A DNA stretch of 60,985 bases, filler included, from Diploschistes diacapsis (lineage: Eukaryota): assembly GCA_023645945.1 (NCBI GenBank). It is 6 parts of 6 records of this genome, joined end to end, with 100 filler letters (N's around TTAATTAATTAA, not from the genome) between each part and the next. Parts side by side here need not be neighbours in the genome. Positions count along the whole stretch, not along the records: positions 30,602 to 40,687 come from JALAIB010000964.1; 5 more parts are not named here. The stretch is one strand, 5' to 3'. The position numbers and the translations under genes are program-made. Below, piece by piece: positions 19,968-42,883 of this stretch. Numbering within the stretch: the stretch's first letter is position 1; each line of letters opens with the position of its first letter. A model generated the notes under the pieces. It saw only the letters and a program-made list of their open reading frames with translations, had not been told where the DNA came from and ran no database searches.

Positions 19968-20308
19968 AACACCATGTGTGTTGAGAAGTATGACATGCAA
20001 CGACATGGGAACATGAAATGAAATGGCACGCAAACCATGCAACAACTAAACCTGATATGACCCCAGTAAATCCAAGCGATTTGACTCGATTCCTAGGCGC
20101 TTCAAAGGTGTTCGGCTTGTCACGGCTTATTAAAGACTTAGGGGGGGCACTGATTTTCTCCATATCGAATAGTTAATCCCGGCAACTCAGTTTCTCCGCT
20201 CCGTAGCCACCTCCGTGCTGTGCTGTGCTGTTGCGCATCAAACCAAAGTCAACAAACAGCAACAGCAACAACGAAAAAACTCACCCACACCCACACCCTC
20301 ACCCCAAC

Positions 20309-20408
20309 NNNNNNNNNNNNNNNNNNNNNNNNNNNNNNNNNNNNNNNNNNNNTTAATTAATTAANNNNNNNNNNNNNNNNNNNNNNNNNNNNNNNNNNNN
20401 NNNNNNNN
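20309..20408. other. Artificial contig linker
   Basis: N-run + TTAATTAATTAA + N-run. Confidence 0.99.
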
Positions 20409-23400: not shown

Positions 23401-26400
23401 CATATGAGATGGGATCTTGCCAACGCCGGTCCTGGTTGTAGATGAGCAACAGCAAAGGCTGAAACTGAAGTGGCAGTGGCTTACGGATCATCCTCCGCAG
23501 TTGTCGCACTTCTCCCCAGAAGTAACAACCTTCTCCGAGATGCCTTTGCAAGATCCCGACTTCTTTCCCGCACAAGGTGCTGTGTCAACTCGCTGGTGGC
23601 CGCAGGCGTATTTGTGGATAACCTTGACACACATGGCGATTGATGGTAGCTGTGTTCGGAAGGGCAACGAAAGGCTGATGCAACGAAATACAAGAACAGC
23701 GTAGCAAGTGACGAATCCAAACTAAGCCTAAATGTTAGCCGTAGTGAAACTGGAGATGTCGCAGTAGTTTCTCGCGGCGAAGGTTCCGTCGAAAACGCAC
23801 ACGTGCAAATGACTGTTTCTTTCCACAGTTCTAACACAGATGACAACAACTGTCTGAAGGAGCGACGAAAACGGGGGGTCCTGTGGTCTGTCTTTGAGAG
23901 GGACGTAAGAGAAATATAAGAAGAATCAAGCTTGGCCCAAGGATACGGGTCTGCAATGGCCGCTCGAAAAGGGCGCGTCTTTCCTTTCCGGCCGTCAACG
24001 GATAGACTGAAAAGATTGAGGCTGCTTTCCGTGTAGCCTCCAAGTTTAATGGGAACACAAGAATGATCTGAGAGCAGCCCGGAAGGGGAAGCGGTTCTTA
24101 TAGAAAGTTTTCAGGGGTATTCCTGACAGAAGCTAGAAAATCGAGATCTGTAATAGTGTCTAATCGACGAGCGGTGGGATCAATATGAAATTAGATGTAC
24201 TCCCTAGGCATGTAACGGTCGCGCTGCAAAACTCGACAAACCGAGCATATGTAGGTAGGCAACCATGGCAGTAAGGATGGTGAAGTGCGTCTGATTGCCG
24301 GATTGATGACTTACCTATGCCAAATAGGATATGGGTTGCAGTGGCTGGTCTCTGCCACGAGGCACGTCAAAGGGGAAACATCTCGTGTGGAATCTTATAT
24401 CAGCTCCACACTACCCGGCCGGCGAAGCTGAAAATAACAAGATTGACCGCGTGGATGTGCACAGTACAAGCTCCATGCAGACCTTTGACTGGATAGAAGT
24501 GAGGTAGCGTGTACATTGTAAGTAAGATACATGCGGTGAAAAGGAACGACATGTACTTATTTCAACAAAGTCGGAAGGCTGGACCCACCAATCAGTAGTG
24601 CGAACCGTTAGACGTTGCCTGCGGCATGTGGAAGGCATGGCAGAAAGTGGCTAAGAGTCTCCATCTCTTTCAACCCTTGACAACAAAGGCCAGAGCTTTA
24701 AGCCAGCAGAGGCAAATGCCAAAAAAGGCTGGCGCAGGCAGGTTGCACTCGCTTCGGTTTTTAATTCTCGCCCAATTTCCATACAAACAAATCACGAGCC
24801 GGACACGAGGTTTCCGATTTATCCACAATCCTAGCCATCGACACATCAGACAGCAGACTGGAGTTGAGACTCACAATCGATGGCGCAAATGGTCTTCCCG
24901 CTTTGATGGAAGCTCTGGCCAATCGACAACGTTGCAGGCAACTGCCACGCCTCGAGGAGCCATTAGGGCGAAAGCAAAAGGTAACGTGTAGGTCACACAC
25001 CCGGACAGCGATGCGCATGAGCCACATAGCGTCCGTCGATTATTTGCTTGTCCAAACAAGCTTCGTCAATAGTCTTGCAAACTCAATGTGGCTGGCTGAG
25101 GATGTTGAGTATCTCCACACAATGGCAAGAGGGGAGCGCCTTGTCCACGCGGGGGAGTTTGGGCTTGCCGAGCCGATGCACACTGTGCTTGAAGGGGTGA
25201 CTCTTGATTTTGGAGGAGCGCCAAATAACCCCACGGTTTCTGGGCCGAATCCTAAGACCTCCACGATTGAGCAAGAGGACTGGCACTTTGATCCTTCCCA
25301 AGACCGAATGAGCGCAAAACTGCGAAATATCGAGTGCTCGGACCGAGATGCTGCATGCCTATACTTCCCTGTACGAACGCAGTCAGCTGCCAGGAGTATG
25401 CATTCTCTGACTTCGAACGCCGAGTAGACAAAACATGTCCGACTGCAGCAAGCCATGTGCATCAACAGGTAGGGCTGCATCTCGCGCGCCTCATATTGTG
25501 TTATCGACCGCATTCCAGCCTCGGATTCTCAAGCGGTAGCCCCCCGCCAAGTCCACGCACTGCAGAGATCACATCCTGATCCATGCGGCGGTGATTGGCA
25601 AGATCCCCATGCTAGCGCCGGTTCGAACGTTGTATGCATGCATGAGAGTTTGGTCAAGTGATCTAGGCTGCAGCTGCGAGGGCGGACTGCTTTCTAATCA
25701 TCAATTCCGTCGGCAGAGATGCTAGGAGGGAAACCATGTGTGCGCTGCCGGCGATAATTTCCCCATCATGCCATTCATTTGAGCAATAGACTAGTTATAA
25801 GTCGCCGTGGCCACGAGACGATGCTATGGAGTGCAAAAGTAACATAGTGCGCGTCGAATTGTTGCGTTTCATTCCCAGTTGGACATGTCTGTCCAGTTCG
25901 TCGGTGACGTGGGCCGGTGCGCTATTCGATAACGGTCTGGGGGATGACGACAAGGCAGGCGGATGCACAGAGCGATCGATGAAAATAATCAATCCTGCGG
26001 TTCAGCAGGTCAGAGGCATACAGTACGAAAGGATATAGCTGCATCACGGTTTATTTCCAAGGTAAGGCGTTGTCCACTTTGGTGGAGGAAGCGCACGAAC
26101 TTATGAGCAAGGCCTTCTCGTTTCCGCAGTAGACGCTGGCAGCCCCCAGAATGAGGCCTGAAATGGATACAACGATATGGAGGGAGATTGATTCAGTATA
26201 CCATGTTATAGTTTGCAATGGAGTAGTACTCCGTAGAGGGTTGGTGTTTGTTAGCGGATAAGTTGGCAACTGAATTTGAATTTTGGCAGGGGAGCTGAAT
26301 ATGGGGCGGTGCAGAATGTGTGAGTGAGTGTGTGTTTGTTGTTTGTGTGGGCAAAAAAAAAAAACAGCCCTACGAACTTGAGCCGCATCTTCTTGAAGTT

Positions 26401-27107
26401 TGTTTGTTCTCTGTTCTCTTCACTTACGCTCATCCTTCACCCTTCACCGTCTTCGGTACTAACACAAACACACAACCCACTCCCACTACTAACTAGCATC
26501 GGATGTCGGATGTCGTCTTACAACTGCACTACCTACCCGGGTAAGGGTTTGACTGGCCGGATGGCTTCTCGACTTCATCTCGTCTTCAGTTGTTTCCCCA
26601 CATACATCACTTCTTTCCTACGAGTCACGACTCCCCAACCTGTTTGCCCTTCTACACCCCCTGTTCGTTCCATTCCCCTTCGAAACATCCCCCCCGAAGC
26701 CTTGCCTGCCTGGATCTAGGAGGTCTTGCTTATGACGGTTGGAGAGACCAGAAAACAGTCTGTGATAACCCTGAAGATAACCGGCTCCAACTGTTCGGTC
26801 TGGATTGGTACCCGTCTTCCAAAATGTTTTCCGCCCTGTTCCAATGGTGGACCATACACCATAACATCTACAAGCCAACGTCGGAGCCACCGAGAGGACT
26901 GGGCCGTCGAGCTATATGAATGCTTATGCCACCCCTCTGCAGAATTCCTGTCTTCATGCTCTCACCAGCTTGAAAGGATCTCCATCCCCAAGATTCATCT
27001 ACGTGTCCACGCTATACTACTCTGCTGATCGTCGTGCTGGGAACGACATTTCTTTCTCTCTTTCTCTATCTAACACCTCTTAATCGTTAATTTCTAATAC
27101 GTTCACC

Positions 27108-27524
27108 ATGAACCGATCAATCTCCTACACATGCACATCGTCGTCAGAGTCCTCCTCAGACTCTCAGCCGAGACGGCTGGGCCTCAAGTCATCCAAGTCG
27201 TACACCGTGTCGACCTCTCCAGACATCCTACAGCTTTTGCCCGCCACAACATATGTCCCACCGTCGCCGCGAGGACGCCTCGTCCAGCACTCCTACGTGA
27301 GGCCCTCGCTCCGCCTCGATCACCATATGATGCCTTCCCCCGAAGAGATCATTGCAGCCGCCACGGCCACGCGAGGCAGGAGATCTTCAAGCACGAGTAG
27401 CACCAGCTCGATCGAGAGCAACTCCAGCTCGAGGTCCGAGAAGAGACAAGGAAGAGTCTTCATGCCCACCTCTGGCGGCAGTATCCTCGACCTCCTAGCC
27501 GAGAACCAAGACATGGAAGACTAA
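27108..27524 (+). CDS. Small Ser/Arg-rich, probably disordered hypothetical protein (138 aa)
   Basis: ATG in good context (CACCATG), CT-rich tract just upstream (27050-27070), C-rich codon usage like host genes, RRSSS motifs. No recognisable domain. Confidence 0.55.
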   Translation: MNRSISYTCTSSSESSSDSQPRRLGLKSSKSYTVSTSPDILQLLPATTYVPPSPRGRLVQHSYVRPSLRLDHHMMPSPEEIIAAATATRGRRSSSTSSTSSIESNSSSRSEKRQGRVFMPTSGGSILDLLAENQDMED

Positions 27525-28603
27525 TAGAGACTAAGAAAGAAAAGAGAACAAGAAAGAGACCACAATAACCATCCCACCCTTGCCGTCCCAGCAGCAGCAG
27601 CAGCGTCAGCATCAACATCAGCACAAAATCATTCACTTTAAGCGTTCGGTCTTGCATTTTGAGCGTTTCATGATACCCACCGGAACTTTACAGCGCGAAG
27701 TCCACGACTCTTGTATTTTATTCTTCAGCGGCATAGCGGCATGGCGACGGCGTTCATGGTTTTTTTTGGGTTTTCTCCATTCCACCGTCTTTGGGTGTGA
27801 GCTGGACCTCGGGAGCCACGGTGACATTATGGGACTTACACGGGGCAGGCCTCGTCTTTGGGACAACGAGCCTCGGAGTTTTGACAATTTGGTTCGCACA
27901 CTCGCATGGACTTTGGGGGGGCCCAATACAAGGATACGACCCTTGGAAATTGGGTTTCGGCAGCTGGCAGCTTGTTATTTTCATTTGTTCCTTCTTTCAT
28001 CAGTCTTGTTCTATTCACCCTACAACAACAGCCATCTCGTGGAGGCTTGTCACGCAACCATGCAATCACCCGAATCGATCGATTGGTGGCAGTGGATGGT
28101 GAAGCTCTTCCTTTTTCTTCTTTTTCTCTCGATGGCGATCAGGTTGCGGGCAATTCTCTCGTACTTGATCCCTTCTCTCCTGGTCCTTCCTCAAGCAAGC
28201 AAAACTAGAGGCAACCATATCCATCTTCATTGTTTTTTGTTCCAGTCTTAGTCTTGGTTCTCGGGTCGGAGTTCTGGTCGGTAGATAGGGTGCAATAGGA
28301 TCTCCTTTGTCATAACCATGATATATCTCCAAATCGAGTGATTCATTGGTGCCGCCGTCATGCAATCTGCTGCCCTTGCCTGCTAACATGCAGGTACAAC
28401 ATCATGTAAGCAAGCTTAAATGAAGTCTCTATGGTAATTTGTACCAGGTTCTAAAAACGTGAACGTTTAGGGATATACATCACAAAATGGTGTAGAATTC
28501 TCAAGAGGGGACATAGCCTAGTAGGTAGGACTGTCATTCCCTACGTGAGATATCTCCGTAGTAGTTGTCCTCCCTAGTTGAGTTTGTTCTTTTTTATTTT
28601 CTA

Positions 28604-28701
28604 CAGCTCAGTAGTTAGGTACACCATAAGCGGCAGTAAAATAAGCAGTCAACTCTTTACTGCCGCTTATGGTGTACCTAACTACTTTTGGCCTAGTACT
28701 G
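28604..28701. mobile_element. 98-bp Tc1/mariner-derived MITE flanked by TA
   Basis: Perfect 31-bp inverted repeat (28610-28640 / 28656-28686) with ends TA|CAG...CTG|TA. A near-identical terminal sequence recurs at 40867-40928. Confidence 0.85.
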
Positions 28702-30501
28702 TACCATTGGAGGGTTCCAGAATTAGCAATTAAACCAATACGGCATCCTCAAGGCTACATACAATATTCTGTCCAGCCCTCCATCATTTACAGGCTAAAA
28801 AGCGTTTTGCCAACGCGCATCCCACCCAACCTTATCTCATCTTCGGTCCAAAGATAGAGTTGCCCAAAACACCCAATTTCCCGTAGTCTATCATTCATCT
28901 CCCCCCCTCCCCCCAAAAAAAACCTACTGCAGGCCAGCAATCCACTCGAGCTCAGGGCAAAGAAGCTTCCCCCAGCACAGGAAGAGCTTTCCCTGTTGTT
29001 GCAGGCTTTACCTGGCAAAGCGCATACGTACAACAACAGAGGTAACACTTCTCAGCGCACGCAGCCCCCTGTCGTTAATACGCCGCCATCAACCTTCCCT
29101 GCTGCCCCCCTACTTTGTCCAACAAAATTTACAAACAGTACTTGGGATAATAAATCTGAAGGGCCCCCCCGTTGTAATTTCGGAACCGGTTTTTCTGTTC
29201 GAGGGCAGTGCCCCTATCTCAAACATCCTTTTCATCCCCATCACGTCGTTGTGTAATCTTGTTCTCGCGTCCGGGGGCCGTTGCTTGTTTGTTTGTTTGT
29301 TTGTGTACAGTCGCTAGAACTTAGTTTGGCTGGTTAGTCAGCCGTGCAACTAAAACTTCTTAAAACCAAAATACTAGTTGTAAAGAATTTTGCCCCCGTC
29401 GGGGTCTGGAAGATCTTGGGCGCTTTCGCCTATTTAGAGAAACCCCCCGTTGCTATGTAGCTTGGGTTGGAGTTTGGGGATAAATGGGCTGCGCCCCGCC
29501 GCGCCCGTGTGTGCGCTTGGGTACACTGGGGATACGGTCGGGCGGAAGGGAAAGGGAGATAGGATGGGAGGGAGATGGGACAACATGGGGGCTGTTGGAT
29601 ATTACTATATGTAAAAACACCAAACTGCCCCCCATTTTCTCTTCCTATTCAGCGATTCCCCGCAGACAGACGTATGTATCTTGCAGTTATACGCCCATGA
29701 ACCGCATAAGAGGCAAGAGAGGAAGCTTGTGGCTCTGTGCTTCTATTCCAAAAAAAAAGCAAAAAAAAAAAAAAAAAAGCATAAAAAGCTGCCTGGCCTG
29801 CTGTAGATATCCTGGGCCTCGCCAGGCTCTGACTTCCAACGTCTGTTTTGTCGGATGCGATAAAGTCTAAAATCTATTGTTGTTCAAAGTATCTATCTTT
29901 CAAACGCATTCCGTCCAAATCCCCAACTTTGACGACAAGCTTGAAACCAACGTGAGCTAGGCAAGGCCGTTGCTCCAACCCGATCAGGGACACGATCCTG
30001 ATCGGGTTGCCTGCTTCCTGGTCGCAATCGCTAGATCTCAGATCCTGATTGTTGTTTCCGCTGGGCTCGTCCGTAAACTTGGTCAAGGTTTCCAAGTGAA
30101 TGGGAGATGGGGAAGGGCCGGTGCAGTCGCGTAGGGGTAAATTACGACGCCAATCGATGTGAGTTCTGTGGTGCAGATTACAGAGCCTCAACTCTCCAGT
30201 TTCTGCCCTGTAGGGTATTGGTATGGTCCGCATATCCAGTATCGAGTCTGAGAGTTAGACGTGCGAAAGTTGAAACTTGAAGTCGTTGCAAGGACGAACT
30301 CTGCTGTGAGCCGTCCCCGTAGCAAAGTCCCATGTCTCTTCCTTTCTTCTCTAATCGCACCTTGCGGCGCTTGACCAGTCCAGAATCCAATGCGCCAACC
30401 CCATGTGAAGACCCCAGCCTCTACACCAACTCCCCGTCCGATCTGCTGACCGCCCTACTCCTCCCCGTCCCCACCATCCCTCCCTTCTCCCCCCTCAACC
30501 T

Positions 30502-30601
30502 NNNNNNNNNNNNNNNNNNNNNNNNNNNNNNNNNNNNNNNNNNNNTTAATTAATTAANNNNNNNNNNNNNNNNNNNNNNNNNNNNNNNNNNNNNNNNNNN
30601 N
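30502..30601. other. Artificial contig linker
   Basis: N-run + TTAATTAATTAA + N-run. Confidence 0.99.
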
Positions 30602-30778
30602 AGATAACTCGGTTAAAAACGAGTAGCGCTTTTTAATTACTTTATTTTAAAACGAGTTAAACGCGATGTTAAAATAGTTATATATCTTAACAATACGAGC
30701 TAAAAAATGTTACTTATTTTTAAAACCGGGGAGCCGTAAAGCGCTACTTATTTTTAATATATTGGAGACGCTAGCCTA
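30602..30778. mobile_element. AT-rich repeat relic with reiterated motifs, possibly a DNA-transposon end
   Basis: Repeated TACTTATTTTTAA / AGCGCT / AAAACGAG units. Ends in GACGCTAGCCTA, which resembles the terminus GACGGTCAGCCTA at 39967-39979. Confidence 0.45.
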
Positions 30779-30932
30779 AAGGAGGGTGGTAACCTGTCTT
30801 CGTAAAACAGCAACCTAAACCTCTCTTTTCGAGAGCCAAATTACCGTCCACATAGCAAATCCGCGTTAAGGAAACTCTAAGAGGCTTGCTTGGTTTTCTG
30901 TCAATTCATTCTCTTTCCTTCTATGGCTCCTA

Positions 30933-33900
30933 ATGGCCCAAGAAGTGTCCGAATATTCAAAGATTGCCGCACAATTTGCATCAGCGAAAGCAAAGGCGGC
31001 GCAAGGACCCAAAACAAATAGAAAAGCCTCGTCGGATGCTGTCATCTTCAAGACGCGACACCTTCTGGCCATTACTTTCTTTCTCTGGATCTTGTACGTG
31101 CTAAAGGTGCTCAATTCTAAGCCCTGCTAACAGTCTCAGCTTTCTCCAAGCAACAGGTATATATCTCTTCACCAAAGGCTTCCTCCTCACCCGTCTTGTC
31201 CTCGAGAACAAATCTTCATGCGCTCAACCGCCTGTTGTGCTCAAAGATCATGGTGACTGTTGGCTGCCGAAGTCCTTTGATAAAGCGGTCGTTCTAGTCA
31301 TTGATGCGCTGCGATACGACTTCACGATACCCCATGAAAGGAACGAGCATTACCTGAATTCGTTCCCAGTCCTATACGAAACCGCGGTTGGGTCGCCTCA
31401 GAATGCCTTCCTCCTTCCTTTTATTGCCGACCCGCCTACAACAACGCTACAGCGGCTCAAGGCACTGACGACGGGCACCTTGCCGACCTTTGTTGACGCG
31501 GGCTCGAATTTTGCAGGAACAGCAATAGAGGAAGACAACCTAGTTGCGCAATTGAGAAACTTAAACAAGACCTTGGTGCATCTTGGAGACGACACATGGC
31601 ACTCGCTTTTTCCAGACTATTTTGACCTAAACTTGACACATGCCTACGATTCGTTCAATGTTTGGGACCTCCATACGGTTGATAATGGAGTTGCGGAGCA
31701 CCTTCTTCCATTACTGAAGAAGCCTGAGGCATGGGATGTTATCTTTGGGCATTTTCTCGGTGTGGACCATGCTGGACACCGCTATGGACCCAGTCACCCA
31801 GCGATGGCTTCTAAACTTCGGCAAATGGACGGTTTGATCCGAGATGTTATTCGTGACCTTGCCGACGATACATTACTTGTCGTATTGGGGGATCATGGGA
31901 TGGACGGCAAAGGAGATCATGGAGGCGAGTCTGATGATGAGGTCGAAACTGCACTCTGGATGTACTCGAAGAAAGGCATATTCGGCCGAAGCACTCCCAG
32001 CTATACTCAGCCACCTCTTACGGCGAAAGACAAACCTGTTGCGCAGATCGACCTTGTTCCGACTCTGGCTTTACTATTGGGTCTTCCTATTCCTTTCGAC
32101 AACCTTGGTGCTCCCATTCAAGAGGCTTTCGTAGGCGTGGGTACCAAGCAGTGGGAACGATTAGTGTCTGCGCAAGCGCTTACAAGCTCCCAAATTCATA
32201 ATTACCAGCTTGAGTACTCCAAAGCTCGAACCTTAGATGAAAGGGCCATGTCAGAACCTGAGCGTCTATGGGCGGAAGCTCTGGAATTATGGAATGGCCG
32301 CCCCTCGGTTAGTCCAGAAAACCAAGTTTACATGAAGATATCCAAAGCATTCTCAGACTACCAGAAGGGCAATCTTCAAGTCTGTAAAAGCCTCTGGGCT
32401 AGATTTGACATACCTAGTATGGCTAGTGGCATATTGGTACTTTTTCTGGCTGTTGCTGCACTGATTGTTTTTGCTAGCTCCGCGCTTAAAGATAGATCCC
32501 TTTTGATCCCTTCTGTGCTACGACGTGTTGGAATCTTCGGCGTTATTGGTGCTGCCCTTGCCAGGGTGGTAGGTTTTGGCTTCCCCGACGTGCCAAATCT
32601 GGACGCGTCTTTACTTGGAGCTGCGCTTGGGAGTTACACTGGTTATGCTTCAGTATTGTTACCGCAGCTATCCTTTTTAACTTTACCGACAACAATCTGG
32701 ACTTGGCTAGCCATAATATTCACGGGCCTGCAATCTATCGGATTTGCTTCAAACTCTTTTACTATTTGGGAGGATGAGATTTCCCTTTTTTTCCTTGGTA
32801 CTTTTGGCGCCTTTGCGTTAATATCATCCTTGCGACAGTCTAATGATGCTGACCGTATACTCGGAGTGTATCATTCAATCATTTTCCTAGTAATGTCCAG
32901 ATTGGCTTCTCTGTCCAGGTTGTGCCGCGAGGAGCAAATACCTATTTGTAAATCAACATTCTATGTTTCTGAAACTTCCTCGACCTCTTCCATCTGGCAG
33001 CTCTTCATTCCATACGTGGTCGCAATAGCACTGCCCTCCGTTGTTAAATCTTACTATAAAGGGACCAAGTCCTATGAAGGCTCTGCGGCATTCTGGATTG
33101 GCTTATGCTTCAGATTGGGACTTCTTGGATCGGCAGTATACTGGACACTTGACGCTGCAGACAACGGGGAATGGTGGACTAATCTTAGCACCGCAGATAT
33201 GTCAAGAATCAAGACTACTCTTGCCCAAGTTGTCCTTGCACTGGCATTCGGCGCCGGGACAGCTACTTTCATCTGGGCGCCACCTTGCGTCCGTGTCGAA
33301 ACTTCCAATTACGCATCGTCCGAACTGGGCAACACCAGATCCGGAGCCAAGCCCAAGTCCATCACCATTTTAGGCTATGCCAATGTTCATGGTTCTCGCT
33401 ATGCCCTACTCTACACTGCATGGCACCTTGCAGCTTCCCTCGTCTCCAAACCTATGGGTTCCGGTTCCCTAGCTCTCATGGCATGGCAACTTTTCTCTCT
33501 CCTCGAAATTCTCGACAGCAACGGCCTCACGCCGTCTTCCTCTACAGAATCTTCTCCTATCGGCCCTGCCGCTGTCGCCCTCCTTGCGTCCTTTTATTAC
33601 TTCAAGACAGGCCACCAGGCCACACTATCATCAATACACTGGGACACGGCATTCATCCCTCTTACAACGGTTCAGTATCCATGGTCACCGCTCATAGTTT
33701 TTCTGAATACATATGCCGCCCAGATTCTCGCAGCAATCTTTGTACCACTTCTTGTTTTCTGGAAGCAACCTCCACCAGGTCCACAAAAGCCAATTCTGAG
33801 CACGTTGAACGATGTCTGTGGCGCCTTTGCTGCGTTTTTCAGTCACGTCGCTGTTCAAAGCCTTGCTACCACTATATGGGCCGGCTGGCTTAGGAGACAT

Positions 33901-34047
33901 CTGATGTTGTATAGGATCTTCAGTCCAAGATTTCTTGTGGGAGCTGCTGCGCTTCTGGTTGTCGAGTTGATTGGCATTTTCTTTGGCTTGGGACTCGGAG
34001 TGTGGTATAACATTACCAGCATCGCAGAGGTCTTCGGCTGGGGCTAA
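30933..34047 (+). CDS. GPI13: GPI ethanolamine phosphate transferase 3 (PIG-O)
   Basis: GIYLFTKGFLLTR, VIDALRYDF, ADPPTTTLQRLKALTTGTLPTF, HFLGVDHAGH, GDHGM..GDHGG, SNSFTIWED, TGHQ, RRHLMLYRIFSPRF. Intron at ~31094-31139. Confidence 0.96.
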
Positions 34048-34106
34048 CTCTATTTTTTCCACAACCAAAATCATTCGATATTCTCCTTAAAGACAAGCCC
34101 GCAAGC

Positions 34107-34520
34107 TCAATTTCGAATGCTCAGACCACCACAGACCCCACAATGCTTCCACCGGCCTCTACAAGTTGGGCAAATCCGGTCGCGCCAGTACCTCGCCAGC
34201 TCCACCATCCGCATAGCACACTGTTGCTCTTCCAGCTGTCGCCTTTGGATCGCTTGCTCTTTCTCCCTTTTCTGCTGCGGTATTATCGCAAATATCATTA
34301 ATCGATCGAGCTCGAGTTGGATCGGTGTGAAGAATCCAGTCTCGGTCACGAAATCGAAGATCATGGACCGGCAAGCTTGCTCGAACCAGGGATCTTCATG
34401 GACCCAGCGGTCTACGTCAGGGCAGGAAAGCTCAAAGAAAGAGAGGAGGGCTGAGGTGGAGGTACGCTGCATTTCTTGAATGATAGAAGAGACGTCGAGG
34501 TTCATTGTGGGTAGTGGCAA
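34107..34520 (-). CDS. Hypothetical protein with a coiled segment and C-terminal CxxC-x6-CxxC
   Basis: ORF ends ICPTCRGRWKHCGVCGG. The frame stays open upstream to ~34646, so the start is uncertain. Confidence 0.4.
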   Translation of the reverse strand: MPLPTMNLDVSSIIQEMQRTSTSALLSFFELSCPDVDRWVHEDPWFEQACRSMIFDFVTETGFFTPIQLELDRLMIFAIIPQQKREKEQAIQRRQLEEQQCAMRMVELARYWRDRICPTCRGRWKHCGVCGGLSIRN

Positions 34521-35202
34521 TGCGGAAGGTATGGAAGCGTCGGCCAGCGACAGCAGATGATCGTGACGATGATGAAAGATTGAGTAAGCAAATAGAGATG
34601 ACTGCTTGGCGTCACCAAGTAGATAAAGGTAGATGTTGAAGTGGCGTCATACAAGTCTGAAGAAAAGTTGTGTGTTCACTTCAAGTGTATATTCGCAAGG
34701 TCGCGATCACATAACATCGTGATATCGCGTTGAGGAAAATGCCAAGTGGCAGTACCTCTTTGTGCAAGAAGTCGCAGCTCACATTCTCGCACCGGCTCTT
34801 TTGCCTATCTACCTTTCTTTTCTCCTCTGATTCTGACCTCAGTCCGGGCACCGCGTACGGCGACACAAAGCCCATTGTCCTTCAAGTCTCAAAACCACAT
34901 CCCCTCTGTTCCTAGCCCTGAACCCAACCAAAGCATTGTCTCGCCCCTCGCTCTGCTTGTTTGCCAGATTGGGTGGTACTAAAAAGCTACGCTTGGATCC
35001 TCTACCGCTCCTGCCGCGGCCTTTGAAAGCGCATCGCTCACACATCTCAGTCGCGAGCACAGCACAACCTACCTCCCCCACGCCATCCGTAACGGCCACC
35101 CTTTCTCCCTCTTCGGTGCCGTTAATACTGGCCCCAAGCACCACCCAGCCCCGTATCCCCAACCCGTCCGGCCCTCTCACCCCGCGTGTCTGCGTCCTTC
35201 TA

Positions 35203-38200
35203 TCAACACATTCTCGGCTCCCAAGTGCAGTGTGTCGGTGAACTGTCATCTCCCGTAAGTCTTGAAGGTGCTTCCCACGGCCATTTGGTCCACATCTTGA
35301 CATCTTTGCAATAATTGCGAATCCTGTGGTAAAGCTTGGCCTTGGTTGTAGATTGCCCTTTTAGACTGTCGTGATCGACCATGACGACAGCGCCTGTCTT
35401 TGGTCTGGTCAGGCTCGTAAGTAGTTTGCCGTGATCTAGCGTAAAACCCCATTTCGCTGCTGTACGTACGAGATCGAAGATGATAATGTCATTTGATTGT
35501 CCAATGTATCCATCCAGAACCGCAGATTGGATAGGACGCCGATTCTCACTAAATACTTTGTATAATTTGCTTTGTCCTTCGTATGGAGTAAGCACCGTGT
35601 TTTGTTTTCGGGGAATACCATATTGTTCCAATCGGGAAACTAAGTTCTCGGCGTGATCGATTGCGGTTTGATTTATCGAAGATCTTGTGGGTCCCCATTG
35701 TTGTTCTTCGGTGTTGTCCATTTCGAGGAATACAACGAGCGATTGGGCTCTCTGGTAACTCCATCTGTTCCCTGATAAAGTTGAAGAGGTTAGGAACCAG
35801 GGGACGGTCTCGATCGGTTAGGCCACATTGAAGACGTCCATGATAAAAAAATCTTTCTGACGAACTCAAAGTACATAGGTGGAAATCGGTAGGTTACTTC
35901 GAGTCTGTTGACTGGGCGCTTACGTGCGATTTGCAAGTTTAGAACCGATGGTTCGAGAATGCAGGCTGCTGGAACTTGATATGTGTCCAGGGGAAAGACA
36001 GAGATCTGTTTTGGGTCCCCACATACATGGATCTTAGCCTGTGGGTGTCCCGCCATTACAACATCCCATATCTTGTTGGCTAATCTTTTGTCCTTCGGTG
36101 CAATCTATGATGTCCGCTTTCCAACCCCTGATAATGTCGTCGCCTGACCCATAGAGAGTGGTCACAATGCAATTGACAGTCTTGGTCATATCTTCGAAGA
36201 TCGTACGGAGTAGTGAAACAAAGGAGTTCTCTTCCTTCTTAGTGAACCTTCCCGCTTGGTTGTAGCGTACTAATAGGCCCTTTAGTAAGCGAAGATCATG
36301 CTCTGCTCCCATCTCTTTCTCTAGGTTGACCTTGTTTTGCGCGGTCTCTCTTGCCAGGGCTTCCCACTCCCCCTGATTGAGACCTATTGGGGCTGCCGGT
36401 GCTTGCTTTTGTTTCTTGATGGATTTTCCTCCCGTCTCGTAGTCGCCCGTATCATCGTCGTCCTCCATCTCATGCATATCTTCTCCTTCCGGTAATTCAA
36501 GGGAGCTGGAACCGGATGCACCATTGTTCTTCTCCTTCTTCGTCTGCGTCTTCCATCTCCTTGTCCTCTTCTTATGCCTCGAGGATTTCAAGCGTAGGAG
36601 CATGTTTGGTGTCTGGGTTCGGCTTCCAGTTGTAGAGGTCTGGTTTCTTGGCAACGTGGTGTGCAAAGCTCATGCATGGTAGAAGGGAACGCTTATCGGT
36701 GGTTCCATTGTGGCCCTTATATCGCTCATGAGCTGCTTGCTGTAGTTTCAAGGTTTCTGTGAATTCTGATGGGAAAATCTCTAGGAGTTTAGAGGGTACG
36801 AATTTCGTCTGTCCTGCCGCAAGCCATTTAATAAAAGCAACGTTCGTGTTCTCTGTGCAGTGTCTGATAACCCGTAGCTCTGGATTGACTGCGTTCAGGA
36901 TCGGTACAAAGTATCTGCCATATGATCTGCTATTGAATTCTGAGGCGCCACTATCAACACCTTCTGACCTGATTCGATGAAGAAAAGGGTCAGCAGCCTT
37001 TCTGAGAACGTTTTCGCGGTTCCCGTTGATCCTACCGTAACGGCAATCTTTCCCGGGGCTCTTTCAAATAATCGGTATAGAGAATGTTGTTCTTCGATCA
37101 AGACAAGGTTCTGGATTTTCATAGCAGAGCCTATCCGTGCTTCTAAGTTACGAAGAGAAGCACCCCGAAAGCCTCTCATCAATATTGTAGTTCTCTCAAT
37201 ACCGGTTTTTCGGTTGGCACTGCTTCCGCATATTGAACCCCATTCGCTCATCCTGCCAAGCTCGTGCAGTGTGTTTCTCAGGATCAGTAGCATCAACGTC
37301 AAATGGGTTTAATTCACGAAATGCGGCGAACTGACGCTTGATCGACTGATTGGAATAGCGGACGTGAAGCTTGGCCCAATTTGCTGGTCCGTCATGAAGG
37401 AACTGTACTAGCTTTGGTATGTCTGTGCCCTTGAGCGCTGTAGCATCGAATATGTGCTCTGGTTTAGCTGAATGAATGTGCTTGGAAGTATTGACATTCC
37501 CTTCTTCATCAGTGGTAGTTTCAGTCTCTACATAAGCGGTTACCATCAGGCAAACATCTGTAGCGCTGGCATGCTTTGATGTACGTGCAACCACTCTTCC
37601 CTGCCAAGATCTTCCGATATCAGGCGTAAAGTAGATAGTTACAGAATCCCCGATCTTTAATCTTGTTTTGAACCCTTCTTCTAGTCGAAGAAAACCGTGA
37701 TACACTCCGTATTTGCTTGATTGGGTATGTATCAGACGAAGTTGTGAGAGAACTTCTTTGGACTGGTCTCCTTGTTCGCATTCTAGTTGGCGCAGATTAT
37801 GGCGAGCGATGATCTGTTGAAGAACCCATTCCTTGGCATCGAGGGGGAACAGCTTTTTGTCGAAAGAGATCTGCGGCTGGGCCTTCATTGACTTAAGGAC
37901 ACCATAGGTACTTCGGTACGGATTTCCCTTTTGCTTGTAAAAAGCAACATGAGGGTCTTGGCTCTGGAGTGTCTCGATACAACGCTCATACTCCGCGAGG
38001 TCTACTTGAAGAGATAGATTCGCGTATTTGTAAGATGTCTCGAGTCCTGGGTTCGAGGTTGATAAGTTCTCCTCATCCACGGTTGTCAATGTCTGAGATG
38101 CCTGAGCTACAGCTCTCTTCTCTTTCTTTCCCAGTGTAGCTACACGAATTACCAAATGTACAAGAATCGGTTGTCGGTGCATAGCTTCCAGCTGCAACGT

Positions 38201-38965
38201 CTCTGCAAAGAATTGTTCGACTTTCGCATATGAACTCTTAGGGTCATGAGGAATAAGATTGACTCCCGGAGAGTTGAATTCTGGGGTGAAGAGAAAGGAA
38301 AGATAGTGAAGCTCTTCATTGTTGTGATAGATCGCAATCTGGCGCGATCTGCGTGAGCTTGCATCTTTTGGAACCTTCGTAGGTGTTGTTTGACGGCATA
38401 TTGTGCTTAATTCTGACCGATTGAAGGTTGCTTATCAGACTGTTCGTTTCGAAGATGATTGTTCATCCTGACTCGAAGGTTTCTTGATTGGGATCAGGAC
38501 GTACTGCAGCTGCATTCTATAGTCGATATGGAGATTATAAAATCGTATAATCTTGGGTTCGTTCATTTCACCATTCCCTTTGAGAACATCACACCTGAGT
38601 TCAAGGTATGTGTCCCACTTCTCACTAGGTCTGAGATAGAAAATTGCCTTCTCTGAGAGGACTTCCTGTTGCTTAGTATCCGTGAACTGTCCAAACTGAA
38701 TACCTTTGATCTTGTCTTTTTCCTGCACCTTTGGTTCTAGTGTAACTAGGCATGGATACTTGCGCTCGTAAGTTTGTTCGAAGTTACGACTTACCAAAGG
38801 GGTTTCAGTCGTTGGTAGAGTTGATGGCGGTGGCTTTAGTTCTACTGCGGCAATAGGAGCTGTCTCAGTTGGAGTTAGTATCAGGTCTTCCTCCGCTGAG
38901 GTCTGGTTCGGTGGGTTGAGCTGAGATTGCTCAGGGTCTCGACCTCCAAGTTGATCTGACTCCAT
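35203..38965 (-). pseudogene. Intronless, highly divergent superfamily-1 (UPF1/DNA2/NAM7-like) helicase, disrupted
   Basis: Motifs in the correct order: AVTVGSTGTAKT (I), KVLIVAPQNSIADHM (Ia), ADIIDCTEGQK (II), VCGDPKQI (III), LEVTYRFPP (IIIa), VLTPYEGQ, VLDGYIGQSNDIIIFDLVR (V), LLTSLTRPK (VI). Tandem in-frame TGA TAA at 38432-38437 and several frameshifts. Confidence 0.8.
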
Positions 38966-39470
38966 TTGGAGGAGCGATAAGGTTAAGTGAAATTAATATG
39001 TAGCTTCCTTTTTTCAAAATGAATGACTTCCTGGTTGTGTTGCCGTGTCATGTAAGATGAAGGTGTGGAGTGAAACCGAAAAATTTGTTGAAGTGTAAGT
39101 GAAAGTTTGTTTTATATTTGCTACGCGATTGAGTTTGAAGGTATGCCCAAAGAGGTAATAAACCCAAAAGGGTATAAGTATGATCCGTTAGGTAACATAC
39201 TGTGACGAAACAAACGAGGCTTCTAGTAGAGGTCCTAATGCCTAGGCAGCATATAGCACTTGTCGAGCTTCGTTTGCTTGCCGCAAGAAAGCTCTATTAA
39301 AGCTATGTTGTTCCGATCTGGCTCGGGATGAGGTTCCTTAGGGCGTCGAGTGTTTCGGTGTCGGTTGAAGCTTTCAACCACGCTAGGTCCCAAGTATCTC
39401 CCAAGAAAGTTGAAACAGCAATTCGCCTCCGTCTTCCTTGCAAATTGGAGACAGATCTCCATATCTTAAT

Positions 39471-39979
39471 TAGGCTGGCCGTTTCGTGCCACGGTCACTG
39501 ACACGGACACTGCATTATAGTAAAAGCACGGACACGGACATTACAATTAAATTTTTAAAATATTGATACTGACACGGATACTACACTTCCGTGAATCCAC
39601 CGAAATACTGCGGTGAATCCACCGAAACACCGCGGTGCAATTTTTTAAAAAAAATAAAAACGTGAGAAATAAACGTGATAATTCCAGAATTATTAAAATT
39701 AAAAAATATTTTAAAATATTTCGGTGAATGCACGGACACGGATATCGTAATAAAAATTTTCTCGATACGGATATTAATACGGATATTACATTATAATAAA
39801 AACACGGACACGGATATTATAATTAAAAAATTTTAAATATTAATATTAATACGGACATTACATTTCCGTGAATCCACGGACACGGATACCGCAACTAAAA
39901 AATCTAAAACACGGATACTGACACTATCAGTATCCGTGTCACTGACACGGCCGTGTCAGTATCAGTGACGGTCAGCCTA
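39471..39979. mobile_element. Non-autonomous hAT-like DNA transposon (~510 bp) with subterminal repeats, RIP-mutated
   Basis: Terminal inverted repeats TAGGCTGGCCGT / ACGGTCAGCCTA, many ACACGGA(C/T)AC units, and an internal ~100-bp duplication (39500-39600 vs 39777-39877) differing mostly by C>T and G>A. Confidence 0.7.
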
Positions 39980-39984
39980 ATTTA

Positions 39985-40687
39985 ATTATTTAAGAAAACC
40001 TTCCCAGCCAGTCTTGCTTATATCAATTCTTAAAATAATCGATTAAATCTTGATCACCGTATAATCTAACGGCTTTAAGATAGAAATATTAGTAAATAAT
40101 AGTTTAAGTATATCTATAACTTACTATTAATGAAAACTTTATAAGAAAGATTGATCCTTTTTTAATAATTAATATAGAGGCTAGGCGATAACGGCAAAAT
40201 CTTTAATCCAAATACGATAATAAATACACATTTTTAGAAATCTTTTAACTTGCGTAATATCTCTCGAAATAGATTAATCCATTATTTTCAAAACCTTCTT
40301 TAATGCTAAAGAGCGTTCTTCCGGGGTATAAAGATAGCCCATTATTTTCAATTTTTCAATACATCACTATAACTTCCTTTTTAAGATAATCGTATCGATT
40401 ATTTTTATCGTATATAAAATTTGATCGATATTTTATATATGTTTAAATATATATTTCCGTATATTAAATAAAACTTTTTTTTATTTTAAATGTGTTTAAG
40501 ACCTTTAATTCCAAAATCATTAAAAAAGGATTAAATTATATAAAAAAGATCGATAAAAATAATTATTATTATTCGTATAAACTATCCGATTAAATTAATA
40601 CCTCCTTATAATAAAATAATACTTTTTAATAGATCTAAAAGAGTCGAAAAAGTCATAAAATTACGAAATCTTTTATAAAAAATATAC
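39985..40687 (-). mobile_element. RIP-degenerated Ty3/Gypsy LTR retrotransposon pol fragment (RT to start of RNase H)
   Basis: Minus-strand translation gives *GGINLIG*FIRI (QGATNSVAQFVRI), FFNDFGIKG (FLDDIGVKG), KIMGY..KKVLKIMD, RFLKMCIYYRIWIKDFAVIA*PLY and IDISKTGWEGFL (VDAS..GWGGVL). Very AT-rich with many stops. Confidence 0.85.
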
Positions 40688-40787
40688 NNNNNNNNNNNNN
40701 NNNNNNNNNNNNNNNNNNNNNNNNNNNNNNNTTAATTAATTAANNNNNNNNNNNNNNNNNNNNNNNNNNNNNNNNNNNNNNNNNNNN
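40688..40787. other. Artificial contig linker
   Basis: N-run + TTAATTAATTAA + N-run. Confidence 0.99.
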
Positions 40788-40926
40788 TAAAGGGCGCCGA
40801 GGAGCTCCGAACGCTCGAAGGGCTTCAAACGGCGTTGTGGTGGCATAATTAGAAGAATAATAGCAAGAGTTGAATGTTTATTTACTACCGCTTATGGTGG
40901 ACCTAACTACTTTTGGCCTAGTACTG
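40788..40926 (-). mobile_element. 5' end of a Tc1/mariner transposon (TIR plus start of a putative transposase), truncated by the contig end
   Basis: Minus strand reads TA|CAGTACTAGGCCAAAAGTAGTTAGG (Tc1-like CAGT terminus). ATG at 40856 opens MPPQRRLKPFERSELLGAL, resembling the first helix of Tc1 transposase HTH domains. Confidence 0.75.
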
Positions 40927-41427
40927 TACAGAAGTCAAGCACTGGCCAAGATCGGAGCTGTTGTGAAGAAGCTGGCTGAACTAAACTTTTCCAAGGAAAA
41001 TTTCCTGCTAAATCAGGGTGGAGAACAAACCTTCCGAGTTACTCTCATCTCCAGAGGCAGCACCCTCTTACGTGTAGGTGCGGGCTTCGAGGATAACCCC
41101 TCATGCCTATAACCACTGATATAGCATAACAGAACGTGCCTTCATGCAGACTCTGTGGTATGTATTTTGTCAAACACAAGTAGACATGAGAGAATAATGG
41201 GTTGTTTATGTGCGTTTTCGGAGAATCTGATTTTCCAACCAACCGTAGATTTAGTCAGCATATCTTCTTCCAATGACATTCGGCTATACCGCAGCGCTCA
41301 TAATGATGGAGCCCGGATAACTTTACCATCCAAGCAGTCCGAATTCTCGCTGATATCTGCCATATTCTTCATACTGATACATTCGCAATAACTACTAGCT
41401 TGAGAAAGTCTGAGACTGTTTCCAGAA

Positions 41428-42883
41428 ATGGCAGACGTCGCAGTCGAGCATGCACCGGGCCTTCCGTTGACGAAGAGAGCGACTTTCTCCTCTATACCTA
41501 CTATTGACTCTCTTGAGGGAATAACGGATGGCGAGGATGAGTACGCGACCTTGAAGAAACTTCAGCGGCATCTCGAGTAGGTTTCATCTACGACTTCCTG
41601 CCAAACATTCTTTAACATGGTACAGGTATATAAACCTCCAAGAAGAGTACATCAAGGACGAGCAGAGGTCCTTGAAGAGGGAGCTGGTCCGCGCACAAGA
41701 AGAGATCAAGAGAATACAGAGCGTACCGCTTGTTATTGGACAATTCATGGAGGCGATAGACCAGACGTGAGCTTGCTTCTGCTGTAACCCTTGCGCAAGC
41801 TGAATCTTGTGGAAGCACTGGAATAGTACAGTCTTCAACAGGTTCAAACTATGTTGTGCGGATCCTCTCAACGCTCGATCGCGAAAAGCTCAAACCATCC
41901 TCATCTGTCGCTCTGCATCGTCACTCGAACTCCCTTGTCGATATACTCCCGCCAGAAGCCGACTCATCAATAGCTATGCTTGGAGCAGATGAAAAGCCGG
42001 ATGTCACATACGCAGAAGTTGGAGGTCTTGACATGCAAAAGCAAGAGATTCGAGAAGCGGTGGAACTACCTTTGACGCATTTTGATCTCTACAAGCAAAT
42101 CGGTTGGTGCAACTTGCAGCCCATGCTCACCACATATTAACGTTGCTCAGGTATTGATCCCCCACGAGGCGTTCTACTCTATGGCCCACCAGGAACTGGC
42201 AAGACCATGCTTGTCAAGGCGGTTGCGAATAGCACCACAGCCAGCTTTATTCGGGTGGTAGGCTCAGAGTTTGTCCAAAAGTATTTGGGTGAAGGGCCGC
42301 GCATGGTTCGCGACGTGTTCCGAATGGCAAGGGAAAACTCACCAGCCATAATCTTTATCGACGAGATTGACGCCATCGCCACCAAACGCTTTGACGCTCA
42401 AACAGGCGCCGACAGAGAGGTTCAACGTATCCTACTCGAATTGCTAAACCAAATGGATGGTTTTGATCAGACAAGCAACGTCAAAGTCATAATGGCTACA
42501 AACCGCGCTGATACGCTTGATCCTGCGCTTCTCCGGCCCGGCCGTCTTGACCGAAAGATCGAGTTTCCCTCACTACGAGACCGGAGAGAAAGGCGGTTGA
42601 TATTCTCGACGATTGCTTCCAAGATGTCATTATCGCCCGAGGTAGACCTTGATTCTTTGATCATCCGTAACGACCCTCTCTCTGGCGCCGTAATTGCAGC
42701 GATTATGCAAGAAGCTGGTCTGAGGGCAGTCAGGAAAAACAGATATAACATCATCCAGGCAGATCTGGAGGATGCGTACTCGAGTCAAGTCAAAGGAACT
42801 CAGGAAGCTGATAAGTGAGTACCCTGGCCACGTCTACGAATCAAGGCTGATCCAATATCAACAGGTTCGATTTCTACAAGTAG
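41428..42883 (+). CDS. RPT3: 26S proteasome AAA-ATPase regulatory subunit 6B
   Basis: [65 protein letters not shown]-terminal FDFYK*. Four short introns. Confidence 0.97.

Follow-up and report, generated by a model that had tools for sequence, protein, structure and literature searches.

A helicase-like reading path of about 3.76 kb, running on the minus strand of a 60,985-nucleotide stretch of Diploschistes diacapsis DNA (assembly GCA_023645945.1; the whole stretch is referred to here as the window) from an ATG at 38963-38965 to a stop codon at 35203-35205, is very probably a non-functional, decaying unitary pseudogene. Its intact ancestor would have belonged to a rare, intron-poor or intronless and highly divergent branch of Ascomycota helicases of the Upf1-like (DNA2/NAM7-type, superfamily 1B or SF1B) kind. 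A first-pass annotation, made from the letters of the window, had described the locus as an orphan UPF1-like helicase with every ATPase motif degenerate, and had proposed a pseudo-helicase, an endogenous viral element or mobile cargo. Its idea that the altered motifs are ancestral is supported, but the pseudo-helicase label and the viral and transposon origins are not, and it made too little of the fact that the copy is dead, also in related lineages. The locus itself would be an ordinary dead gene without consequence for the organism. What is new is the branch it comes from: fold and motif order are of an already known kind, but the ATP site is non-canonical and the N-terminal module is novel.

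Frame breaks and neutral change

Eight overlapping stop-to-stop open reading frame (ORF) pieces, together about 1250 codons and helicase-like, cover 35203-38992 of the minus strand (Table 1), which bears out the earlier claim of a frame of about 1200 codons and 3.8 kb. To identify relatives we used the N-terminal ORF of 411 amino acids (aa) as query in an exhaustive phmmer search of 1.84 billion (1.84e9) representative proteins. At E <= 0.001 it returned six proteins, namely the window's own product (P0001) and five relatives: P0002 (304 aa, E 2.5e-32), P0003 (1082 aa, E 3.9e-14), P0004 (564 aa, E 4.6e-7), P0005 (341 aa, E 1.9e-5) and P0006 (1135 aa, E 1e-4). Both P0003 and P0006 are full-length, uninterrupted single ORFs with their own start and stop.

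When aligned to these relatives (by tblastn, by MAFFT fragment alignment and with a hidden Markov model, HMM, of the five), the path demands at least eight frame changes and runs through two to four stop codons. Frame switches fall at about 37163, 36902, 36527, 36068, 35845 and 35743, and the stops passed are those at 37196-37198 and 36572-36574. No switch leaves an intron-sized gap, the matched positions in the homologue or the HMM abutting or overlapping each time, indicating that the breaks are 1-nucleotide (nt) frameshifts and not introns; the collinearity of the alignments also agrees with the earlier description of the frame as intronless. At the 37163 junction, for example, the frames of the window read NIDERLSG and then ASLRNLEARIGSAMKIQNL, and P0005 reads DVKEELSGAKLVDLEERIGTALGIKNF continuously, which confirms the ancestral register.

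Three sequencing runs contain the stretch, and we compared them over 35100-39200, relying on 12 of the 27 indels and 40 of the 161 substitutions. X1 is identical to the window. X2 ('organism A') has 0.29 of the sampled words present, in contigs that are mostly 95-99% and overall about 96% alike to the window; X3 is a rock metagenome from a separate study with a depth of 3-6x. Relative to the window, 1-nt indels were found in both X2 and X3 at 38447, 38328, 37163, 36902 and 36527, and in X2 alone at 36068 and 35845, where X3 keeps the state of the window. The positions of these indels coincide exactly with the shifts demanded by the homologue alignments. A script that applied the listed changes of X2 opened a single frame of about 500 codons (37533 to 36022), which runs past three frameshifts and both nonsense codons of the window. 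X2, however, has lesions of its own: an added A at 37533, a base lost at 36022 (inside motif III), an added GT at 35237 and two nonsense changes, one at 35900 and one at 35706. Given these private lesions, the shifts that X3 shares with the window and the lack of any listed indel that repairs the switch near 35743, the lineages of the window, X2 and X3 all carry a dead gene, with lesions that are partly shared and partly private. On the partial indel list, the frameshift near 35743 appears to be common to all three.

Table 1. Positions of features on the helicase-like path, with the motif counterparts in P0003 and human UPF1 (HMMER alignment of P0003 to UPF1)
Feature	Position (strand)	Basis or comparison	P0003	UPF1
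TATAAAA, candidate element	39110..39116 (-)	presence only; ~145 nt upstream of the ATG		
Whole path of the probable pseudogene, eight frame segments	35203..38965 (-)	ORF pieces; collinear tblastn, MAFFT and HMM alignments to P0003 and P0006		
ORF pieces in reading order	38435-38992, 37196-38431, 36895-37308, 36572-37063, 36034-36669, 35790-36104, 35549-35893, 35203-35817 (-)			
Segment between compensating 1-nt indels (38447, 38328; relative to X2 and X3), holding TGA TAA 38432-38437	38329..38446 (-)	contig comparison		
Putative stalk helix and 1B-type beta-barrel	37325..37822 (-)	residues 204-369 of the 411-aa ORF, AlphaFold2 model		
Nonsense TGA; GGA in X2 and X3 (37198 A>C, plus strand)	37196..37198 (-)	contig comparison		
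Extra base in C/G run, frameshift; X2 and X3 one base shorter	37163..37166 (-)	contigs; P0005 and P0002 align across the junction		
Motif I (Walker A) GSTGTAKT	37009..37032 (-)	aligned to P0003, in turn to UPF1	GIAGSAKT	GPPGTGKT
Missing base, frameshift; X2 and X3 carry an extra G	36902..36903 (-)	contig comparison		
Motif Ia			VLILSPQNQVAD	VLVCAPSNIAVD
Nonsense TAA; CAA in X2 and X3 (36574 A>G, plus strand)	36572..36574 (-)	contig comparison		
Extra base, frameshift; not in X2 or X3	36527..36527 (-)	contig comparison		
Acidic insertion core, between motifs Ia and II	36436..36483 (-)	P0006 insertion at the same position		
Motif II (Walker B) DCTEGQ, Thr for the canonical Asp of D-E	36088..36105 (-)	P0003 FTEGQ aligned to IDESTQ of UPF1	(IF)TEGQ	(ID)ESTQ
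Extra base, frameshift; not in the main X2 contig (depth 78.6 of 114.2), common to X3	36068..36068 (-)	contig comparison		
Motif III GDPKQI	36003..36020 (-)	homologue alignments	GDPRQI	GDHCQL
Motif IV TYRF	35883..35894 (-)	homologue alignments	TFRATP	QYRMHP
A7/T7 homopolymer, extra base, frameshift; X2 one base shorter, X3 as window	35845..35851 (-)	contig comparison		
Frameshift without an indel among those listed for X2/X3	35740..35746 (-)	HMM frame switch between 35760 and 35729		
Motif V DGYIGQS	35494..35514 (-)	homologue alignments; within the AAA_12 match	DYIGGE	DAFQGRE
Motif VI LTSLTRP	35401..35421 (-)	homologue alignments	LTALTRM	NVALTRA
C-terminal WTKWPW	35275..35292 (-)	P0006 counterpart WTKWPF		

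The first-pass annotation had taken the frame to be broken by frameshifts and by a TGA TAA pair. The frameshifts are real and so is the pair, but in the register of X2 and X3 the two codons are out of frame, and the letters of the window then give a TAA at 38407-38409 instead. Since the indels at 38447 and 38328 bracket both codons, the pair may be no more than a side effect of two frameshifts that compensate each other. Of two candidate introns drawn by hand around the pair, a 92-nt one (38413-38504) disrupts the frame, and a 99-nt one (38406-38504) keeps it but would turn the X2/X3 insertion at 38328 into a frameshift. The public annotation of the locus has a similar solution. The 90% cluster of P0001 has as its sole named member a 575-aa 'MAG: hypothetical protein' of Diploschistes diacapsis (P0007), whose 42-nt GT..AG 'intron' (38431-38472) exactly spans TGA TAA and whose model ends at the nonsense codon at 37196; both the intron and the model look like a gene-predictor artefact over a pseudogene. 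No full-length helicase can be made from the window copy, and the only sizeable products possible are N-terminal fragments that end before motif I, such as this 575-aa model.

The substitutions listed for the contigs also look neutral. Among the 38 that were classified (of the 40 listed and 161 in all), 26 are nonsynonymous, 4 create or remove a stop and 8 are synonymous, and they fall on codon positions 1, 2 and 3 in the ratio 14:15:9. With site counts taken from the reading path, these 38 give an omega (nonsynonymous-to-synonymous rate ratio) of 1.07 under equal rates and 1.37 at a kappa of 3, so that about 1.1-1.4 would fit neutrality; if omega were 0.2, eight or fewer synonymous changes would have a probability of 2e-6 or lower. 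A substitution at 35187 lies past the stop and was left out of the tally, and including a synonymous one at 35233, which makes the tally 30:9, leaves the conclusion the same. Thus an uninterrupted or spliceable frame under purifying selection was not found at this locus.

Several points weigh against this interpretation. It is drawn from DNA alone, and two ORFs, of 411 and 185 aa, are longer than one would expect in a pseudogene, so that a shortened N-terminal product may still have some function. The homologues are predictions in ENA, and the placement in Ascomycota comes from language-model likeness only. For the N-terminal 330 aa there is no confident homologue alignment, which allows two readings of 38329-38446. 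The window may itself derive from X1, which alone among the runs matches it fully, and in that case the seven lesions private to the window come from one data set, of about 100x depth. The claim of a shared frameshift near 35743 and the estimate of neutrality both rest on a partial list, with X3 covered at 3-6x only, and X2 consists of 105 short contigs in several likeness classes that may mix haplotypes or strains.

The ATP site and the family

The first-pass annotation had quoted five altered motif strings (for motifs I, II, IV, V and VI), and an acidic insertion between motifs Ia and II; all are present in the window (Table 1). Departures from the canonical sequence that are common to the window and the intact P0003 are an Ala before the Walker A Lys, a Thr for the Walker B Asp, GDP[KR]QI, Y-I-G and LT.LTR. 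The intact P0006 has related variants (VAGAAKI, CAEAQ, GDPLKI, TLRM, DAYQGQS and IFTRAT), and P0004 is the sole relative with a canonical GSGKT. Neither the window nor P0003 has a canonical GxxGxGK[ST] motif I or a canonical D-E-x-x motif II. Because intact relatives share them, the non-canonical motifs are, as judged from these alignments, an inherited trait of the family that predates the decay and was already present in a functional ancestor, in agreement with the earlier suggestion that the motif changes are older than the disabling mutations.

The description of every ATPase motif as degenerate, however, was overstated, as was the term pseudo-helicase. The core residues of motifs III, IV and VI (GDxxQ, the Arg of IV and the T-R of VI) stand in order in the window and in the same columns in the homologues and in UPF1. 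The window copy retains Lys-Thr of Walker A, Glu of Walker B, Gln of motif III and the Arg of both motif IV and motif VI, which are the residues most directly involved in catalysis in P-loop NTPases. The seemingly degenerate motifs are the conserved signature of a very small, unannotated Upf1-like branch that is intact in a few assemblies. Contigs of near relatives, such as those compared above, can tell ancestral motif variants from decay. An intact member could show whether a Upf1-type motor works, or works differently, without the Walker B aspartate.

The family is thin. All five relatives are singleton clusters, and the earlier word 'orphan' is therefore nearly true, though not quite, given five relatives among 1.84 billion representatives. 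That only these five came up in an exhaustive search, and that no Pfam model matches the N-terminal part, upholds the proposal of an undescribed family with an unassignable N-terminus. As the intact relatives are single ORFs, the lack of introns seems to be a family trait. Intron-containing fungal orthologues with canonical motifs, which the first-pass annotation had named as the finding that would speak against it, were not found. Word-seeded searches added nothing: the C-terminal piece against longer proteins gave 945 candidates, none with E <= 0.001, in a search insensitive for so divergent a family, and those with the whole of P0006 (6562 candidates) and the core of P0003 (residues 530-1000; 7998 candidates) recovered the queries only, which has little bearing on the size of the family. 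The sole metagenome match to the 411-aa ORF, L001 (WNEY01108374.1), was rejected. It is a high-GC bacterial contig with ABC-transporter permease-like ORFs, and the match is a chance 8-mer, AKPEHIFD, in a wrong overlapping frame.

The literature on fungal Upf1-like helicase pseudogenes and on NAM7/AAA_12 fungal helicases yielded nothing on the helicase family of P0003 and P0006, and that on Diploschistes genomes yielded no paper on this gene. One candidate source (10.1101/2025.11.13.688278) deals, in the part available, with Helitrons and was set aside as irrelevant to the gene.

Pfam places the family among helicases of the AAA_12 type. The window piece 35203-35817 matches AAA_12 with E 2.5e-14 (53.7 bits against a cut-off of 27); AAA_30 (E 5.6e-5, 23.4 bits against a cut-off of 27) and UPF1_1B_dom (E 0.029) stay below their cut-offs. 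P0003 passes the cut-offs for AAA_12 (55.8 bits), AAA_11 (33.3) and AAA_30 (32.7), and P0006 has AAA_12 at 78 bits and passes the cut-off of neither AAA_11 nor AAA_30. Residues ~1030-1082 of P0003 form a Gly/Arg-rich (RGG-like) tail, a kind typical of RNA-binding proteins, which neither P0006 nor the window copy has.

The N-terminal ~330 aa have no Pfam match and no confident model. In the AlphaFold2 (AF2) model of the 411-aa ORF, only residues 204-369 are confident (a long helix, a beta-barrel and two helices), and the N-terminal 202 residues are unmodelled. The best VIA match of this part is UPF1 (9qwn_A residues 304-425, Z 7.3, root-mean-square deviation 3.8, 118 aligned). SETX and Sen1 follow closely, generic barrels also score within 1 Z of it, and Foldseek gives E-values of only 0.014-0.1. 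Based on the VIA match, the position just before motif I and the weak UPF1_1B match, we assign residues 204-369, with moderate confidence, to a predicted stalk plus 1B module.

The ancestor was a protein of about 1100-1250 aa. Its family-specific N-terminus of about 330 aa, without recognisable fold, was followed by the predicted stalk helix and 1B barrel, by RecA1, into which a long acidic stretch is inserted between motifs Ia and II, by RecA2 (AAA_12) and finally by a tail with W-T-K-W-P. The motifs were already the non-canonical GxxGxAKT, T-E-G-Q and Y-I-G. Most likely it was a Upf1-type nucleic-acid-dependent ATPase that bound ATP and single-stranded RNA or DNA, as Upf1, Sen1 and IGHMBP2 do, with RecA1/RecA2 on one side and the accessory domains 1B/1C on the other presumably gripping the strand. 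Holding Mg2+ is normally in part the task of the Walker B Asp, and the Thr in its place, together with the Ala in the P-loop, suggests slowed, altered or regulated hydrolysis. In the lineage of the window selection was later lost, and the frameshifts and premature stops accumulated. RNA surveillance, silencing or defence as the ancestral role is a guess.

Kinship and origin

The family is one of Upf1-like helicases. Among solved proteins, UPF1 (E 3e-7), Nam7, IGHMBP2 and DNA2 are nearest to P0003 in sequence, and the UPF1 alignment extends over all seven motifs. The AF2 model of P0003 is poor (predicted local distance difference test, pLDDT, 47; N-terminal 300 aa unmodelled), and TM-scores (template-modelling scores) in the PDB and BFVD fold searches were 0.11-0.17, for which reason we used the ranking of families and not the geometry. 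In the PDB, IGHMBP2, UPF1, DNA2, SETX/Sen1 and ZNFX1 lead at 8e-13 to 3e-11, followed by Aquarius (1e-7 to 1e-5) and SARS-CoV-2 nsp13 (2.5e-5). The best matches in BFVD are a giant-virus SDE3-like helicase, of cellular type (2.7e-13), and nidovirus helicases from 2e-10. In the ESM Atlas the clusters nearest to P0006 are Ascomycota 'DNA2/NAM7 helicase-like' ones (score 0.98, 222-225 of 256 features), and for the N-terminal half the Atlas gives, all below 0.9 and as leads only, 1B-type domains of SMUBP-2/HCS1, ZNFX1 and UPF1.

With UPF1/Nam7 the family shares a RecA2 domain that matches AAA_12 and an insertion between motifs Ia and II, where UPF1 has domain 1C, and it may also share the stalk and 1B barrel ahead of motif I. 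The similarity to UPF1/Nam7 amounts to only ~32 bits, no CH zinc-knuckle was detected, and the N-terminal part, in window pieces and relatives, is without Pfam match; Walker A is G-x-A-K-T and not G-x-G-K-T, Walker B has T-E and not D-E, and the Q of motif V is replaced by I. Specific to the family are the N-terminus and the WTKWP tail, and the window copy is broken. Sen1/SETX, IGHMBP2 (Smubp-2), DNA2 and ZNFX1 are of the same Upf1-like fold class, lead the fold search of the P0003 model and recur in the 1B-domain matches, but Pfam detected no Sen1 N-terminal domain, R3H or AN1 domain, DNA2 nuclease or NFX1 zinc finger in window pieces or relatives, and the TM-scores to P0003 are low because the model is poor. 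The Ascomycota DNA2/NAM7 clusters of the Atlas (AAA_11 plus AAA_12, 789-1115 aa) are the nearest to P0006 by language-model features; this likeness, however, comes without alignment or E-value, and the exhaustive phmmer search with the N-terminal 411 aa did not reach them.

The thinness of the family and its single-ORF intact members are compatible with a fast-evolving, often lost host gene or with horizontal movement. A more specific version of this, which we regard as unlikely but worth stating, is that the locus is a relic of an undescribed, patchy Upf1-like clade of dispensable, fast-turnover conflict or selfish genes, whose products would clamp nucleic acid with slow hydrolysis instead of unwinding it processively. 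Such genes might encode RNA-surveillance or antiviral clamp-type ATPases, or might move horizontally, with repeated gain and loss among lichen-forming and other Ascomycota.

Considerably less probable is that a mobile element, whether transposon or other (hAT, Gypsy, Helitron-like or Starship-like), brought the gene in beside GPI13 as its cargo or as one of its components and then decayed. The patchy distribution, the lack of introns, a GC content slightly below that of the surroundings and degenerate 72-nt tandem repeats with an AT-rich tract just upstream (39482-40690) fit this origin. However, 54 ORFs from 20.3-31.1, 34.1-35.4 and 39.0-42.1 kb contained no transposase, reverse transcriptase, integrase, Rep or tyrosine-recombinase domain at E <= 0.01, nor did the gene pieces have a transposable-element domain, and no inverted or direct terminal repeats bracket the gene within 34000-42200, although heavily degraded relics could escape both searches. 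The only repeat pair found (20 nt, 90%) has one arm inside the pseudogene. X2 contigs also extend across both ends of 35100-39200, indicating that the locus sits between the same flanks in a lineage with about 4% divergence. In these searches neither the hAT-like element nor the Gypsy relic that had been placed next to the gene was found, and the notion of transposon cargo has no backing.

A viral origin, either as a reverse-transcribed helicase of an RNA virus (a nido-like or alpha-like mycovirus) or as a giant-virus gene, is very improbable. In its favour, the family is rare, apparently intronless and patchy, nidovirus helicases (nsp13/nsp10 type) share the SF1B fold and also possess a 1B domain, and the BFVD matches given above include viral proteins. 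Against it, cellular helicases match the P0003 model in the PDB at ~1e-12 compared with 2.5e-5 for nsp13, and the best BFVD match is itself of cellular type, although with a model at a pLDDT of 47 the fold scores count for little in either direction. In the Atlas the nearest clusters are cellular helicases of Ascomycota, and the intact relatives are stand-alone ORFs, one with the RGG-rich tail. The window pieces have no zinc-binding domain match and no replicase context. Pfam searches of the eight window pieces at E <= 0.1 gave no Viral_helicase1, RNA-dependent RNA polymerase, methyltransferase, protease or other viral helicase or replicase family; the sole virus-named row was a rhabdovirus glycoprotein (E 0.023, 15.2 bits against a cut-off of 27.2). 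P0002-P0006 likewise gave no viral helicase or replicase family at E <= 0.01. Two scans of viral contigs with P0003 and P0006, which detect close kin only, gave 1 and 4 pattern matches, none of them confirmed. The proposed reverse-transcribed RNA virus segment is therefore not borne out, and no support was found for a viral or a transposon origin.

Just as improbable, and largely refuted, is that the gene is functional and only looks broken, through introns, errors of assembly, programmed frameshifting or stops mended by RNA editing. In its favour, the breaks at 37163-37166 and 35845-35851 lie in or beside short homopolymers, GT..AG pairs are possible around TGA TAA (the public annotation uses one) and restorative adenosine-to-inosine (A-to-I) editing of premature stops is reported in Fusarium (PMC10776026). 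Against it, homology abuts or overlaps at each switch, and editing cannot mend the 1-nt shifts. The assembly is not generally error-prone, given the uninterrupted ORFs of 980, 889 and 872 codons nearby. X3, from a separate study, has three of the shifts, X2 has nonsense and frameshift changes of its own, and omega is about 1.

Surroundings of the locus

The window is fungal by its other genes: a GPI13-type gene, adjacent to the probable pseudogene and with the uninterrupted 980-codon ORF, and HECT/AZUL, IMPDH, proteasomal ATPase, sterol glucosyltransferase-type and CPSF-A/RSE1 genes. The GC content of the pseudogene is 0.466, compared with 0.498 for the window and 0.491 for the GPI13-type ORF, and the AT-richness reported in the first-pass annotation is thus slight, in fact marginal. 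The TATAAAA that had been placed about 150 bp upstream on the coding strand is present (Table 1); across the window there are 13 such sites, with 5.2 expected.

A 179-aa ORF without Pfam match (34107-34646, minus strand) separates the GPI13-type gene from the 3' end of the pseudogene. A stretch of about 11 kb upstream of the GPI13-type gene (20300-31100) has many ORFs of 70-240 aa. The 43 that were scanned gave no convincing Pfam match at E <= 0.01; the sole row, a spider-toxin family (E 0.0023, 19 bits against a cut-off of 27), was read as chance. The region could hold lineage-specific genes or heavily degraded repeats. Just upstream of the promoter region of the pseudogene, at 39482-39924, are degenerate tandem and dispersed repeats with periods of ~72 and ~22 nt, rich in ACGGACACGGATA. 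At 39980-40790 follow about 700 very AT-rich nucleotides and then runs of N (40689-40731 and 40744-40787) around TTAATTAATTAA; the GC content of 25% at 40-41 kb comes partly from these N runs.

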